Origin: Candidatus Dojkabacteria bacterium
GTDB taxonomy: Bacteria > Patescibacteriota > Dojkabacteria > J137
Assembly: GCA_040006935.1 (NCBI GenBank)
Contig: JBDTVZ010000001.1
Span: 18,218 to 82,217 of the forward strand
Direction: 5' to 3'
Length of the DNA: 64,000 nucleotides
In this document: positions 37,393 to 62,288 of the stretch, piece by piece
Position numbering within the stretch: the first letter of the stretch is position 1
How the letters are laid out: every line of letters starts with the position of its first letter
Notes under the pieces: model-generated
Told to the model about the DNA's origin: nothing
The model's input: only the letters and a program-made list of their open reading frames with translations
Database searches by the model: none
Position numbers and translations under genes: made by a program

Positions 37393-37462
37393 GGACCGCC
37401 GAACTATTGCGCGAGAATTGGCGGTATGACCTCACCCTAACCCTCTCCTTGAAAGGAGAGGG
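37393..37462 (-). repeat. GC-rich two-hairpin intergenic repeat, copy A (reverse orientation)
   Basis: GGACCGCC-loop-GGCGGTATGACCTCACCC-TAA-CCCTCTCC-TTGAAA-GGAGAGGG; the same stems recur at 46885-46956 and 62216-62288. Confidence 0.8.
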
Positions 37463-46884: not shown

Positions 46885-46956
46885 CCCTCTCCTTTTAAGG
46901 AGAGGGTTGGGGTGAGGTCATACCGCCGCAAAACCACGTACTAGTTAGGGCGGTCC
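46885..46956 (+). repeat. GC-rich two-hairpin intergenic repeat, copy B, preceded by an extra hairpin at 46841-46861
   Basis: CCCTCTCC-TTTTAA-GGAGAGGG-TTG-GGGTGAGGTCATACCGCC-loop-GGGCGGTCC; an upstream TCTCCCCTT-CATAA-GGGGAGA hairpin. Confidence 0.8.
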
Positions 46957-52200: not shown

Positions 52201-53220
52201 ATGGACAAAAATGAACAAAAAAATATCAAATATTTCCAGTTAGCTTCTATAATATTTAGTATTATCTTTTTCATATTAGTTTTTCAAGCAATTTACCCGC
52301 ACTACATATTTGGTGTTTGTGACTATACTCGGTGGTTGACAATTCCGATGGTTCTTTTTGCCATACTAAGTTTCTTAACATTTTTACCTAACTTTATTAT
52401 CCGATTTAAACAAAGATCACAAACTAAATTATTTTTAGTTAATCTAATCTTCATTTTGCTTACAGTTTCTATACTGTTTATTTCAATTTTAAGTAACCTT
52501 TGTGGTGGTTCTACAGGTATAACTGGAGCCACTGGTTTAAACGGGACAATTGGAGTATCAGGGAATATTGGTGGAACGGGTGAACAAGGAAAACCAGGAT
52601 CAACTGGATCAAAAGGGATTTCTGGGCAAACTGGTACCCAGGGTAACTCCGGTGAAGCAGGTGCAGTTGGAGCTGGTGGAACACCTGGATCTGTAGGATC
52701 TACTGGAAGCAATGGGATACCCGGAACAAACGGTTTAGTTGGAGGTTTAGGGTTACAAGGGCCACCAGGTCCACAGGGAGATCCAGGAGCTGCTGGTACT
52801 CCAGGAACAAGTGCTAATATTAACTATGGGTACATTTATAATACTGGTGCCCAATCAGTAGCAATTGATGCTCCTATTCTTTTCAGCTCGTCCGGACCAA
52901 TGGTTGGAGTCACACATACTGCTGGAACATCTACAATTACTATTACTAATGCTGGAGTATATTCAATTAATTTTTCAGTATCAGGGGCAGAAGCTAATCA
53001 ATTTACTGTATATATAAATGGCACACCATCTCCTACAACTACTTATGGCTCAGCAGCTGGTATCCAACAGAATAATGGACAAGCAATTCTTATACTCGGT
53101 GCTGGTGATGTTTTAACTGTTGTAAATCATTCTTCTGCAGCTGCTGTAACTCTTACAGCTCTAGTTGGAGGGACACAATCAACAGTAAGTGCTTCAGTAC
53201 TTATTAGACGATTAGATTAA
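52201..53220 (+). CDS. collagen-like triple-helix repeat protein with a BclA/C1q-like C-terminal domain
   Basis: 339 aa; three N-terminal TM helices, ~100 residues of G-X-Y repeats (GATGLNGTIGVSGNIGGTGEQGKPGSTG...GPPGPQGDPGAAGTPG), then a ~130-aa beta-rich domain (ITITNAGVYSINFSVS...TVYINGTP...AILILGAGDVLTVVN) typical of BclA/TNF-like trimerisation domains. Confidence 0.8.
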   Translation: MDKNEQKNIKYFQLASIIFSIIFFILVFQAIYPHYIFGVCDYTRWLTIPMVLFAILSFLTFLPNFIIRFKQRSQTKLFLVNLIFILLTVSILFISILSNLCGGSTGITGATGLNGTIGVSGNIGGTGEQGKPGSTGSKGISGQTGTQGNSGEAGAVGAGGTPGSVGSTGSNGIPGTNGLVGGLGLQGPPGPQGDPGAAGTPGTSANINYGYIYNTGAQSVAIDAPILFSSSGPMVGVTHTAGTSTITITNAGVYSINFSVSGAEANQFTVYINGTPSPTTTYGSAAGIQQNNGQAILILGAGDVLTVVNHSSAAAVTLTALVGGTQSTVSASVLIRRLD

Positions 53221-53646: not shown

Positions 53647-54217
53647 TTATTTACTAATCTTCTTTATCATCCCCTCTATTTTTGGTAATAGATCAGTGTC
53701 TATAAATTTGATTAATTCAGATCCTTTATCCGGTGAATTCGATACGTCTATTGTGCAGGCATATTTAATACCATATTCAGCACCCGGAGGAAGTTTAGAT
53801 AGGTAATCTGCTAATTCAGACTCCTTAAGTGTGATAACTTCTACAGGTCGATCTAAGTGGGAGAGCTCAATTAGAATTTTATAACCTGGTAAATCTTTAA
53901 AAAACCTTGCCAAAAATCGTGTTGGAGTCTTCAGTTCAGTCTTTGAAGGTATAAATATTTGATCATGAAGAATTAACCCTTTCAGATTATTTAATCCTAA
54001 AGATATATCCTCCAGTGTATTTATTAGTTTATCCTTAGTAGGTGCAAATGTGGATCCTAACAATACTTCTTCATATAGCCCCCCCAAAGTGAAACTGTGC
54101 CCGATCTTCTACTGTATTAATTACCATATTTAGCCCCGGAGAGAGAGTAACAGATAGCGTATCCTTGCCTAGACTGCCGATTTTTTCAATTATAGGAGTA
54201 AATAATGTTGGGTTCAT
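53647..54217 (-). CDS. hypothetical protein interrupted by a frameshift in a C7/G7 homopolymer
   Basis: A 49-aa ORF from the ATG at 54217 (MNPTLFTPIIEKIG...AQFHFGGAI*) and the 146-aa ORF 53647-54087 (which starts at TTG) are joined into one ~194-aa reading frame by removing one C from the C7 run at 54079-54085. Confidence 0.5.
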
Positions 54218-54241
54218 AATTTAGAGTTAAAATTTATATAT

Positions 54242-54592
54242 TTAGTAAGTTAACATTTTATTAATCAATCCAGACAGCATCTTCCCTATTATAACTAATG
54301 AACTATAAATATTGCTATACTCGATTTCGTTTATTTTATCTTCGATCTTTAGAAGCTTTATTATTGCTACACATTCCTGCGTGGAACCACGAGCTATTAT
54401 ATAAAAGTTCTTCTTATCTTTACTACTATATTTACCAGCTCCCTCTGCAATATTTAACAAAATACTTGAAGACGCACGATATAACTGGTCTCTTAGGCTA
54501 TTATGTATCAATCTATTTTTTAGAAAAGGTTGTAGAGAAGTTATTAAGTCTTCAGTTTTCAAATACACAGGAAATTTTTCGAAATCAAACAT
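54242..54592 (-). CDS. four-helix-bundle protein (TIGR02436 / bAvd-like), second copy
   Basis: 116 aa; LNIAEGAGKYSSKDKKNFYIIARGSTQEC family signature. Confidence 0.8.
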   Translation of the reverse strand: MFDFEKFPVYLKTEDLITSLQPFLKNRLIHNSLRDQLYRASSSILLNIAEGAGKYSSKDKKNFYIIARGSTQECVAIIKLLKIEDKINEIEYSNIYSSLVIIGKMLSGLINKMLTY

Positions 54593-54725
54593 TACTATTA
54601 TGGTAAATGTTTGATTATAGCAAAAAGAGAAATCTTGAAAAAGAAATTCCTAAATTCTTAATCTTTGCCTTTATCTTAATTCTTAGAATTTAGATAAAGA
54701 ATTGAGTATTAGAATTAAGAAGAAT

Positions 54726-54969
54726 AGCAGGTAGGGGGAATCGAACCCCCCTCATCAGTTTGCCTGCCCGCCTAAGGTAAAGTCAGGTTGCAATAAAGAA
54801 TGTGAATACAGCGGGTAGAGGGAATCGAACCCTCCTCTTCAGTTTGGAAAACTGACATAATAACCGATATACTATACCCGCTGTATTCACACTAATTATT
54901 TTTAATACCAGTTAAGTTTACTATGGCAGGCGGGGGAAACTGGCATAATAACCGATATACTATACCTGC
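54726..54969 (-). tRNA. tRNA-Gly(CCC)-like gene split in the anticodon loop: 5' exon 54969-54934, 173-nt insert 54933-54761, 3' exon 54760-54726 (minus strand)
   Basis: Minus-strand halves: GCAGGTA-TA-GTAT-ATCGGTTA-TTAT-G-CCAGT-TTCCC | insert | AA-ACTGA-TGAG-GGGGG-TTCGATT-CCCCC-TACCTGC. The acceptor pairs perfectly (GCAGGTA/TACCTGC). The discriminator is U. The T-arm is canonical. The anticodon stem has a C27.A43 mismatch. Confidence 0.5.
54810..54881 (-). tRNA. tRNA-Gly(UCC), complete, inside the insert of the split tRNA
   Basis: Minus strand GCGGGTA-TA-GTAT-ATCGGTTA-TTAT-G-TCAGT-TTTCCAA-ACTGA-AGAG-GAGGG-TTCGATT-CCCTC-TACCCGC-T. The anticodon is UCC and the discriminator is U73, as expected for Gly. 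The D-arm is identical to that of the outer tRNA. Leader TGTGAATACA and trailer TGTATTCACA form a perfect 10-bp extension of the acceptor helix. Confidence 0.8.
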
Positions 54970-55588
54970 ATTAATTACTCCACAATTATAGCAAGTAACT
55001 CAAAATTTTCAAGAATAACAATAATGGCTATGCTACTCATAAACCGACATTTTGAAAAGGCCGTGCCACCTCCTATTCAGTTTTCCGTCAAACTTTAGCG
55101 ACACATCGAATTATCGTTACCAGGTAAGCACTTAGATGTATTCTGATGATTGACAAAAGTATATTTCTGTTATATAATTAAATAGTTAAAAATCAATTAC
55201 AGATCGCGTGTTTACAAGACGGGATGGTCAAGGGAAAGTACGTGAGTCCCAAAACAACCACAAAACTCCCCAACCCTAGTTAATAGTTAAAAATTAATAG
55301 TTAAAAGAAGGAAATATCTTCTTGTTCAATTTCAATAAATGGTTATTAATAGTGCACTTAACTCTTCACTATTAAATCTTAACTATTTATGGGCATTGAA
55401 CCATCTTATTTTCGTAAGAATTTAAGACTCATGCTTAATTCTACTTTATTGTAGAAGAACCTTAAAAACTCAAAAGAAGAAATTCTTTTGGGTTTCGTGA
55501 TTAACAATACACATGCTAACGCTGTGTGTTAATTGCAAAAACCCAATAGAAAGCTTAATAATTCGATTTAACTCTAGTTTACAACTGG

Positions 55589-55706: not shown

Positions 55707-56696
55707 ATGACCGCAACTACAACAAGCCCTGTAACCCGGGCTTCCAATTCGGGTTGGTTCTGGATATATTTGATACTTTTTATGTTCGCTTGTATTGGTT
55801 TAAGCGGTCTCGCGCTACGATACACCAATGGCAACGGAGCAATCAAGAACAGTGCAGCAAGCGTAAGCTTGACAATGCAGCCACTGAACACTAACTACGG
55901 AGCCGGTGGTGTAAATGATTCACCAACGGCAACGCCTTATTGGCAACCTTCGACTATTTCGACGCAGACAGCAGTTCCAAACACATTGATTAACGACTCG
56001 ACATTCGGTTGGGTATATCAAAGTGATGTAACATGTATTCGCAATACATTTGAAGCAATGCATGTTACTCGCATCGTCAACATCGGACAGTCTGTCGGAA
56101 CTGACGGTTCGCCTTCACCAACCCTTGCTTTAATTGGCGTAATCAGCGAAGGCTCTTTTGTGTCTGAATTTGACAACACCAATGGACGGTCATTGACCTT
56201 TCGAGGTGGCGAGGAAGAACAAATCACTCCTACAAGTCCGACACAAATTATCCTCGTAATACTCAATCAAAATGTGGTCAATTTCGCAAATTTCTACTCA
56301 CAACCCTTGCAAGGGGTTGTTGCTGAAGGCGGAGTACCGCTGCTGTCTGTGGGTATAGAAATTAATCAAGGTCAAGGGAATGTTAGCGAAAATCTCTACT
56401 GGGGTAATTCTCTTATTGGTTACGTTAACGGACCTGTAACAATTGTACAGGATATTGGATCAGTATTCACCAACTACACTATGTCGGAGCTGGGCAATCA
56501 CTTGACTTTCAATGACTTTTCTCCTGATAACCTCAGAGGAATCGGTATACCTGTTGAAATGCTTGGAAATGACTGCTGGTCAATCAGCCTAGCTGTCACA
56601 GTCCCAACAAATCAAATACTCAGCTTTGGTGTGGGAACTTTTCAGTATCCACACTATACAGCTATCGCAGACTACCTGATGGTTCACAGCCAGTAA
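55707..56696 (+). CDS. membrane-anchored Ser/Thr/Gly/Asn-rich protein of foreign composition
   Basis: 329 aa; one N-terminal TM helix (WFWIYLILFMFACIGLSGLAL). Codon and amino-acid usage are clearly different from neighbours: GC about 45% against about 30%, and almost no Lys/Glu. No recognised domain. Confidence 0.7.
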   Translation: MTATTTSPVTRASNSGWFWIYLILFMFACIGLSGLALRYTNGNGAIKNSAASVSLTMQPLNTNYGAGGVNDSPTATPYWQPSTISTQTAVPNTLINDSTFGWVYQSDVTCIRNTFEAMHVTRIVNIGQSVGTDGSPSPTLALIGVISEGSFVSEFDNTNGRSLTFRGGEEEQITPTSPTQIILVILNQNVVNFANFYSQPLQGVVAEGGVPLLSVGIEINQGQGNVSENLYWGNSLIGYVNGPVTIVQDIGSVFTNYTMSELGNHLTFNDFSPDNLRGIGIPVEMLGNDCWSISLAVTVPTNQILSFGVGTFQYPHYTAIADYLMVHSQ

Positions 56697-62215: not shown

Positions 62216-62288
62216 CCCTCTCCTTTCAAGGAGAGGGCTAGGGTGAGGTCATACCGCCCCAAAACCATGACATACATCTGGGCGGTCC
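62216..62288 (+). repeat. GC-rich two-hairpin intergenic repeat, copy C
   Basis: CCCTCTCC-TTTCAA-GGAGAGGG-CTA-GGGTGAGGTCATACCGCC-loop-GGGCGGTCC; hairpin 2 is identical to copy A. Confidence 0.8.

Follow-up and report, generated by a model that had tools for sequence, protein, structure and literature searches.

Intervening sequences of 23S rRNA are removed by RNase III without religation, and some of them encode proteins of the PF05635 family. Genes for tRNAs are disrupted in other ways. Integrating elements leave tRNA-gene fragments behind as att-site scars (PMC9897764; Williams 2002, as cited there). In Patescibacteria, group I introns interrupt the anticodon loops of tRNA genes (PMC13011429; 10.1101/2020.01.27.920355), and archaea have split, permuted and intron-bearing tRNAs (PMC3218864, PMC3293823, PMC4033280), for whose disruption an origin from mobile elements has been proposed (PMC3293823). 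Here we describe a tRNA-Gly gene whose anticodon loop holds a 172-nt insert with a second, complete tRNA-Gly inside it. It lies in a 64-kb stretch of DNA (hereafter the window) from a metagenome-assembled genome (MAG) of Candidatus Dojkabacteria (candidate phyla radiation (CPR)/Patescibacteria). The nest is a real, precise and unusual locus, best classed as a variant of tRNA-gene disruption and not as a bacterial spliced tRNA. In the explanation that we favour, probable though far from certain, a palindromic 172-nt cassette carrying tRNA-Gly(UCC) broke into a resident tRNA-Gly gene, whose promoter now serves the inner tRNA and whose two halves have become by-products.

Judged by analogy, the closest known processes would be att-site scarring (PMC9897764) and the mobile-element disruption of archaeal tRNA genes (PMC3293823). 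As at att-site scars, partial tRNA copies stand beside an intact tRNA of the same kind, a tRNA gene appears to have been the recombination target, and function would be kept by the intact copy. The known scars are direct repeats of the 3′ part of the gene that flank integrase-bearing elements of 9–23 kb, whereas the window has two complementary halves; no direct repeat of a tRNA 3′ segment was found at both insert ends, and nothing is duplicated there. The lack of a direct repeat and of an integrase (Pfam, neighbouring open reading frames (ORFs)) and an "element" of only 172 nt set the locus apart from both processes.

Anatomy of the nested unit

Every feature of the nested unit lies on the minus strand, and all coordinates were rechecked (Table 1). 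The only tRNA called across the 64 kb was the inner tRNA-Gly(UCC) at 54881–54810 (ARAGORN and Rfam RF00005, 64 bits, E = 1e-11). The sequences on either side of the insert are the halves of another tRNA. When 54969–54934 was joined to 54761–54726, ARAGORN returned a canonical 72-nt tRNA-Gly(CCC) with a perfect 7-bp acceptor stem, the 7-nt anticodon loop UUCCCAA, a 5-bp T-stem (GGGGG/CCCCC) and the discriminator U73. Minus its insert, the outer gene shows what is expected of a bacterial tRNA-Gly, namely the cloverleaf, the 7-bp acceptor stem, the 7-nt anticodon loop, the T-loop, U73 and C35 C36; A3:U70 takes the place of the usual G3:C70 pair.

An earlier note on this DNA had pointed out the perfect acceptor stem, U73, the CCC anticodon and a D-arm like that of the inner tRNA, all of which ARAGORN and a check of the stems bear out. 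It placed the 5′ half correctly at 54969–54934 and began the 3′ half at 54760 instead of 54761; with that start the loop has 6 nt, and ARAGORN reports tRNA-??? without an isotype. The length of 173 nt given there for the insert is corrected to 172 nt (54933–54762). The insertion was said to follow position 36. This is one valid reading; because of the C run, the junction can equally be placed at 35/36. Removal of the insert restores exactly the 7-nt loop, with no bases lost or duplicated.

Table 1. Features at the nested tRNA-Gly locus, in coordinates of the window
Feature	Position	Strand	Basis or remark
Inner tRNA-Gly(UCC), intact, CCA not encoded	54810..54881	-	ARAGORN; Rfam, 64 bits
Outer tRNA-Gly 5′ half, positions 1–36: acceptor 5′ strand, D-arm, anticodon stem 5′ strand, loop UUCCC	54934..54969	-	ARAGORN on joined 72-mer; alignment score 57 against inner tRNA
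Outer tRNA-Gly 3′ half, positions 37–72 + U73	54726..54761	-	ARAGORN on joined 72-mer; alignment score 54
Insert, 172 nt: 52-nt leader, inner tRNA, 48-nt trailer	54762..54933	-	Junction 36/37 or equally 35/36
Left palindrome half TGTGAATACA, bracketing inner tRNA	54882..54891	-	Sequence check
Right palindrome half TGTATTCACA, includes discriminator U73	54801..54810	-	Sequence check and fold
Closing stem 5′ arm CCCGCCTGCC, core GCCTGCC at 54931–54925	54925..54934	-	Same arm in L015 (CCCGTCTGCC) and L018
Closing stem 3′ arm GGCGGGCAGG (54772–54763) + C, core GGCAGGC at 54768–54762, then AAA	54762..54772	-	GRCGGGCAGGCAAA also in L015, GGCAGGCAAG in L018
Promoter-like site TTGAAA-16-TGnTATAAT	54985..55012	-	11/12 matches, extended −10 TG
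Third, isolated tRNA-Gly fragment AAACTGAATAGGAGG, inner type, positions 37–51	55069..55083	-	Score 25 against null maximum 24; borderline but suggestive
AT-rich palindromic repeat between outer 3′ half and PF05635 gene	54640..54725	-	Dispersed repeat in Dojkabacteria
PF05635 (23S_rRNA_IVP) four-helix-bundle gene	54242..54592	-	Pfam E = 5e-20; own promoter-like site 54641–54614

Each tRNA considered here was aligned to its own ±350-nt flanks and, for the null, to shuffled flanks. The inner tRNA scored 57 and 54 in local alignment with the two outer halves, against a shuffled-flank maximum of ~25; the flanking halves are beyond chance. The isolated 15-nt fragment AAACTGAATAGGAGG sits upstream of the outer gene's promoter.

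In intron mode, the check recommended in the earlier note, ARAGORN did not call the outer tRNA in its genomic context, because the overlapping inner tRNA suppresses it. Once the inner tRNA was scrambled, the program paired the outer halves over exactly 54969–54726, at another boundary that yields a 78-nt "Arg-GCG". Such boundary ambiguity has been described for interrupted tRNAs (10.1101/2020.01.27.920355; PMC13011429); by sequence homology, the isotype of the outer tRNA is settled as Gly. Overlap suppression in tRNA finders hides genes of this kind, and standard finders also overlook the outer genes that carry group I introns in Patescibacteria.

Such a nest could also arise if the assembly had fused two similar tRNA-Gly loci into a chimera. 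The sequence comes from a MAG, and the inner and outer tRNAs have 23 identical bases in the D-arm. A 23-nt repeat is, however, shorter than the usual assembly k-mers, and a chimera would not yield exactly complementary halves around unique, helix-closed flanks. Moreover, a comparable nest at a tRNA-Gln gene (locus L011) is identical in three independent assemblies, so arrangements of fragments plus a tRNA are not assembly artefacts. We regard an artefact as extremely unlikely.

Identity of the two tRNAs

The seven positions at which the outer and inner tRNAs differ are all compatible with a tRNA: they comprise the compensatory pairs 3:70 (positions 3 and 69 in the raw count) and 49:63, the wobble base 34, one base of the variable loop and position 27. 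The D-arms are identical. The C27–A43 mismatch of the outer tRNA is also found in ordinary tRNA-Gly(UCC) genes of Dojkabacteria (loci L003, L004, L006 and L015), and the outer tRNA has 69 of the 72 bases of the tRNA-Gly(UCC) of L004, another Dojkabacteria genome.

We scanned sequence collections with the pattern TATCGGTTATTATGYCAGTTTYCC, which runs from the D-arm to the anticodon and covers both the UCC and the CCC type, so that an uninterrupted CCC version would have matched. There were six matching loci in 185,579 species genomes and two in metagenomes of the Joint Genome Institute (JGI), all eight being single tRNA-Gly(UCC) genes, and none in viral contigs. The comparison with related genomes called for in the earlier note brought up neither of the things sought: no uninterrupted CCC tRNA of the outer sequence type was found in the species genomes or JGI metagenomes, and no second nest like that of the window in these or in the viral contigs. 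The DNA collections scanned do not contain the contig of the window, and in the nearest loci usable for comparison the PF05635 protein is 70–75% identical.

Because of the match to L004, the common 27–43 mismatch and the results of the pattern scan, the outer gene looks like the resident tRNA-Gly of the lineage. Its CCC anticodon would be either a private derivative or original, or a UCC anticodon with one later T-to-C change (T34C). We also considered a foreign inner tRNA of Saccharibacteria/Doudnabacteria type; this idea is weakened by locus L009, which is syntenic with the window and has the same anticodon-arm type.

Expression and proposed course of events

Between the promoter-like site of Table 1 and the outer 5′ half, which follows it downstream, lie 15 nt; no other strong promoter was predicted on the minus strand for the whole unit. 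No promoter-like site was found on the minus strand inside the insert; the inner tRNA therefore seems to rely on the promoter of the outer gene and, as far as the sequence tells, appears to be expressed from it. No terminator-like sequence was found in 54200–55300.

We propose that a resident tRNA-Gly gene, in a recurrent position upstream of a palindrome and a PF05635 gene (see below), was interrupted in its anticodon loop by a single insertion. The cassette would be a small palindrome with a complete tRNA-Gly(UCC) at its apex, and the resident gene would have kept its own promoter, from which a single precursor of ~250 nt would be made. The inner tRNA would then be cut at its 5′ end by RNase P and trimmed at its 3′ end by RNase Z or exonucleases, and RNase III may assist by cleaving the 17-bp extended helix described below. 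CCA would be added afterwards, since the gene does not encode it. The outer halves, with the 52-nt leader and the 48-nt trailer, would be by-products that are never rejoined into a working tRNA.

Such an insertion would persist through self-complementation. A UCC tRNA is able to read GGG as well as GGA, so that loss of the outer tRNA would cost nothing; GGG makes up 12.5% of Gly codons (127/1,020). As to how the cassette entered, our best guess is either a member of the hairpin family described below with a tRNA as cargo, or recombination with incoming tRNA DNA; it could also be the remnant of an intron or intervening sequence. If the cassette reading is true, the locus offers a clear-cut natural case of a gene disruption that complements itself: the insertion brings a replacement tRNA and captures the promoter of its host.

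Of the three readings put forward in the earlier note, that of a tRNA gene used as an insertion target and now decaying fits best in its first part; the outer halves show no decay. A rearranged tandem duplication is unlikely, for it would need two deletions with ends at the same loop position. The third, an intron with a nested tRNA, is taken up next.

Tests for splicing of the outer tRNA

The gene could instead be a functional interrupted tRNA-Gly(CCC), with the nested tRNA as intron: the insert would be removed from the RNA, and the halves would be ligated or would pair as a two-piece tRNA. The tRNA is canonical once the insert is removed, its halves are intact and carry compensatory changes, and ARAGORN pairs them in the genomic context when the inner tRNA is masked. 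Group I introns of the same phylum occupy this site, 35/36 or 36/37 (PMC13011429; 10.1101/2020.01.27.920355), and under the 35/36 reading the insert ends in G, as against C under the 36/37 reading. No group I core (RF00028) was matched, however, by cmscan of 54500–55200 at E ≤ 10, and 172 nt, 72 of them tRNA, is below the ~200 nt or more needed for group I P1–P9; the earlier remark that the insert is too short for a group I intron holds. The base at −1 is C in both readings, whereas the Patescibacteria introns, reported in tRNAs for Asn, Asp, Met, Phe, Tyr and Thr with no tRNA-Gly case, have U at −1 and normal length (PMC13011429). The insert of the window also differs from these introns in having a tRNA as cargo. 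At the gathering threshold and at E ≤ 10, Rfam found only the inner tRNA at the locus; at E ≤ 1 or 10 it found only the annotated tRNAs in eight related loci, and no group I intron, ribozyme or degenerate tRNA in the spacers of L018 and L009.

Archaeal split, permuted and intron-bearing tRNAs resemble the locus in the division of the anticodon loop and in the GC-rich complementary sequences adjoining it (PMC3218864, PMC3293823, PMC4033280). The archaeal cases require a bulge-helix-bulge motif together with the archaeal splicing endonuclease; the window locus shows evidence of neither. An exhaustive geometric search gave no 3-4-3 bulge-helix-bulge spanning the junctions; all it returned was a pairing with the outer T-stem, which is irrelevant here. 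In the fold, the two junctions lie opposite one another, on either side of an internal loop. In contrast to archaeal split tRNAs, both halves are in one transcription unit, with another tRNA between them. Scans of 17 neighbouring ORFs brought up no gene for a splicing endonuclease or ligase.

Given what RNase P and RNase Z are known to cut, they would free the inner tRNA at its two ends and leave the leader and trailer, 100 extra nt, on the outer halves; a tRNA rejoined from these would carry a hairpin of 100 nt in the anticodon loop. We know of no bacterial enzyme that cuts at these exon junctions. There was no second example in the genome, metagenome or viral scans. In sum, nothing supports splicing of the outer tRNA. 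The earlier idea of a nested-tRNA intron with rejoined halves fails for want of a bulge-helix-bulge and a group I core, for the 52 + 48 nt left behind, and for its occurrence in no other genome searched, and we consider a functional interrupted tRNA in general quite improbable. Very improbable, in our view, is the particular version in which RNase P and RNase Z, perhaps with RNase III acting on the arm helices, excise the inner tRNA, whereupon the outer halves, which the acceptor, anticodon and arm helices keep in contact, are trimmed and ligated into a working tRNA-Gly(CCC) or form a chargeable, two-piece tRNA-like molecule. Were splicing nevertheless real, this would be the first non-ribozyme (protein-dependent) tRNA splicing in Bacteria and the first tRNA nested in a tRNA.

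Inverted repeats and folding

The inner tRNA is abutted by perfect 10-nt inverted repeats (TGTGAATACA/TGTATTCACA), that is, by a perfect 20-bp palindrome with the tRNA at its exact centre. Pairing of TGTATTCACA lengthens the inner acceptor helix to 17 bp. This part of the earlier description, a tRNA-Gly(UCC) at 54881–54810 with perfect 10-nt arms, was reproduced by ARAGORN, Rfam and a check of the sequence. The insert ends had been called imperfectly complementary, and indeed CCCGCCTGCC and GGCGGGCAGG pair at 8 of 10 positions; in their best register they form a perfect 7-bp helix (GCCTGCC/GGCAGGC) that ends with the final base of the insert.

The 244-nt unit folds as a nested double cloverleaf of −99.3 kcal/mol (z = −7.8). 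Pairing between leader and trailer (z = −6.7) arises solely from the two arm pairs; the middle ~30 nt have no complementarity (z = −0.2). A single long processing stem formed by the whole leader and trailer was rejected, since the middle sections are not complementary. The sequence hints at a derivation of the insert arms from acceptor-stem fragments (CCCGC/CCTGC, GCGGG/GCAGG); its alignment score was not significant, and we made no use of it.

Terminal inverted repeats like those of a miniature inverted-repeat transposable element (MITE) or palindromic mobile element are present (CCCGCCTGCC/GGCGGGCAGG). There is no target-site duplication at the insert, as the 7-nt loop is restored without duplicated bases. 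As possible further copies, short GC-rich hairpins with the closing-stem arms occur in L015 and L018; no further copy of leader, trailer or arms was found in the window or the related loci compared. At L015 (7741–7787), CCCGTCTGCC-27 nt-GACGGGCAGGCAAA (CCCGYCTGCC...GRCGGGCAGGCAAA) forms a simple hairpin at the leader start of an ordinary tRNA-Gly(UCC). At L018 (4825–4866), CCTGCC-18 nt-GGCAGGCAAG forms a hairpin upstream of a PF05635 gene, in the opposite orientation, and this locus also has ACTTTACCT...GGCAGGCAA in common with the trailer end of the window. On these sequence matches, the closing stem of the window would belong to a hairpin family that is also present in two other Dojkabacteria. 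The hairpin pattern had no matches in viral contigs.

tRNA fragments at related loci

Partial tRNA copies were also found next to intact tRNAs elsewhere. L002 and L006 have a copy of tRNA-Gly positions 1–23 about 80 nt upstream of the intact tRNA, and L011 has a 5′ piece (positions 1–17) and a diverged 3′ piece (positions 50–71) beside an intact tRNA-Gln; in L009, a borderline fragment (positions 63–72) lies 75 nt downstream. None of these fragments is able to rebuild a tRNA, and most tRNA-Gly loci of the same type (L001, L003–L005, L007 and L008) have no such flanking fragments.

At L011 (4545–4845; also L012 and L014), the tRNA-Gln(CUG) has a 21-nt copy of its own 5′ end ~120 nt upstream. 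The diverged T-arm/acceptor 3′ fragment lies 65 nt downstream and carries compensatory changes in its T-stem. The upstream spacer pairs with the D-loop part of the fragment, as it does in L002 and L006. In these two loci (L002:1872–1974, Doudnabacteria; L006:7010–7110, Dojkabacteria), the order is a 23-nt copy of the tRNA-Gly 5′ end, a spacer of ~80 nt and then tRNA-Gly(UCC). The two spacers share one three-way-junction fold, with five compensatory pairs between the genomes, and the D-loop part of the fragment takes part in the closing stem (ATCGGTTATT/AATAACCGAT). The spacer has no match in Rfam. Going by this folding model, it may be a conserved structured tRNA leader.

Loci of this kind bear on a further alternative, a selected processing architecture. 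Here the halves and arm helices would clamp the precursor into a long helix, as rRNA processing stems do, with the inner tRNA at the helix tip, and would control maturation or stability; the halves would not be rejoined. In its favour are the fold of the whole unit into a single nested structure, the perfect 10-bp palindrome, conservation of the closing stem at L015 and L018, outer halves free of decay, and the conserved three-way junction in the fragment-bearing leaders of L002 and L006. Complementarity is, however, limited to two short arm pairs with none between them, most tRNA-Gly loci of the same type lack such flanks, and the nest is conserved nowhere. We regard this architecture as unlikely.

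Several points weigh against the insertion of a cassette. An insertion without loss or duplication, at a site used by tRNA introns, is atypical of illegitimate recombination. There is no transposase or integrase among the neighbouring ORFs and no second copy of the insert interior, and the locus is a single case without a close relative, next to a 146-aa gene that is itself an orphan. The outer halves are undecayed, all their differences from the inner tRNA being compatible with a tRNA; either the event was recent, or the halves are still under selection. The conserved, structured spacers of L002 and L006 suggest that some arrangements of a fragment plus a tRNA are functional and not scars, and together with the undecayed halves they keep a functional architecture alive as a reading.

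The tRNA–palindrome–PF05635 module

A tRNA gene is followed, on the same strand and 133–269 nt further downstream, by a gene of the 23S_rRNA_IVP family (PF05635; intervening-sequence protein, IVP) in six of 11 distinct CPR loci: the window (54242–54725), L009, L010, L011, L022 and L027. The tRNAs are Gly (twice), Arg, Gln, Asn and His, and in every case a conserved long AT-rich palindrome separates tRNA and IVP gene. In the window, L011 and L009, a tRNA 3′ fragment directly precedes the palindrome, and the intact tRNA lies 48–75 nt upstream. The outer tRNA of the window occupies the place that tRNA-Gly(UCC) has upstream of palindrome and IVP gene in the syntenic L009. This looks like an older tRNA–palindrome–IVP arrangement whose resident tRNA was displaced by an incoming tRNA copy.

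The AT-rich palindrome, with core TTCTAAGAATTAAGATAAAG, occurs also at L011 (3604–3656, 4877–4905 and 5386–5433), in L016, L017 and others. It flanks IVP genes on both sides in several loci.

The earlier note described the neighbouring gene as a bAvd-like four-helix bundle. The four-helix bundle is correct; the family is 23S_rRNA_IVP, with no mark of a diversity-generating retroelement (no reverse transcriptase in 17 ORFs). The protein is 100% identical to an NCBI entry from a contig of 516,739 bp. As in the 23S rRNA intervening sequences, a hairpin loop of a stable RNA gives way to an extended helix (predicted here), and the locus has a linked PF05635 gene. The nest differs in that the host is a tRNA, whose function is destroyed by the broken anticodon loop, and in that the PF05635 gene is outside the insert.

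The insert might be what is left of an anticodon-loop intron or an rRNA-type intervening sequence that kept only its terminal helix after a tRNA cassette had taken the place of its interior. The precise site with no loss or duplication, the helix that closes exactly at the junction and the adjoining IVP-family gene would fit, and CPR genomes are rich in introns and intervening sequences (PMC13011429). Against this, no intron-like sequence is left (Rfam, E ≤ 10), L015 has the same hairpin in a leader, outside any tRNA, and no tRNA-Gly intron has been reported in Patescibacteria (PMC13011429, Table 1). We think such a remnant improbable.

Taken with the related loci, the nest suggests that genes are often replaced on a small scale at the tRNA genes of the CPR, and that these are linked to genes for PF05635 "intervening-sequence proteins". 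This link could illuminate how intervening sequences enter stable-RNA genes.

Gene neighbourhood

The earlier note saw an integration hotspot beside a GC-richer foreign island. The fragment at 55083–55069 and the similar scars at related loci lend partial support to a hotspot; no integrase or transposase was found within ~10 kb to go with it. The island amounts to just ~35% GC near the locus, against ~32% across the window. In Pfam scans, the neighbours were of housekeeping and envelope type (Hsp20, NUDIX, DUF1801, a collagen/BclA-like protein, glycosyltransferases, a sortase and an ABC transporter); CTP synthase, named by its sequence, is also among them. Pfam gave no match to integrase, transposase, homing endonuclease, reverse transcriptase or RNA ligase families in the 17 neighbouring ORFs (~10 kb), and blastn of the locus against a phage database gave only generic tRNA-Gly matches.

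For the 146-aa ORF at 53647–54087 (minus strand), the sole homologue among 5.8 billion proteins was its own NCBI entry (ABI721_00350), which is 8 residues shorter than our ORF call. In this CPR genome, the product of the ORF at 52201–53220 (plus strand) combines collagen triple-helix repeats with a C-terminal domain that is BclA-like. A sigma-70 promoter-like site of perfect consensus (TTGACA-17-TATAAT, 12/12) at 55150–55178 on the plus strand is directed away from the tRNA unit; the 329-aa ORF downstream of it (55707–56696) has no Pfam match. Finally, an intergenic hairpin repeat, AGGTCATACCGCC-N20-GGCGGTCCA, is present in three copies in the window, at 37396–37432 (minus strand), 46915–46953 (plus) and 62246–62285 (plus). 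It has no relation to the tRNA insert and may be a terminator or an element resembling repetitive extragenic palindromes (REP-like).

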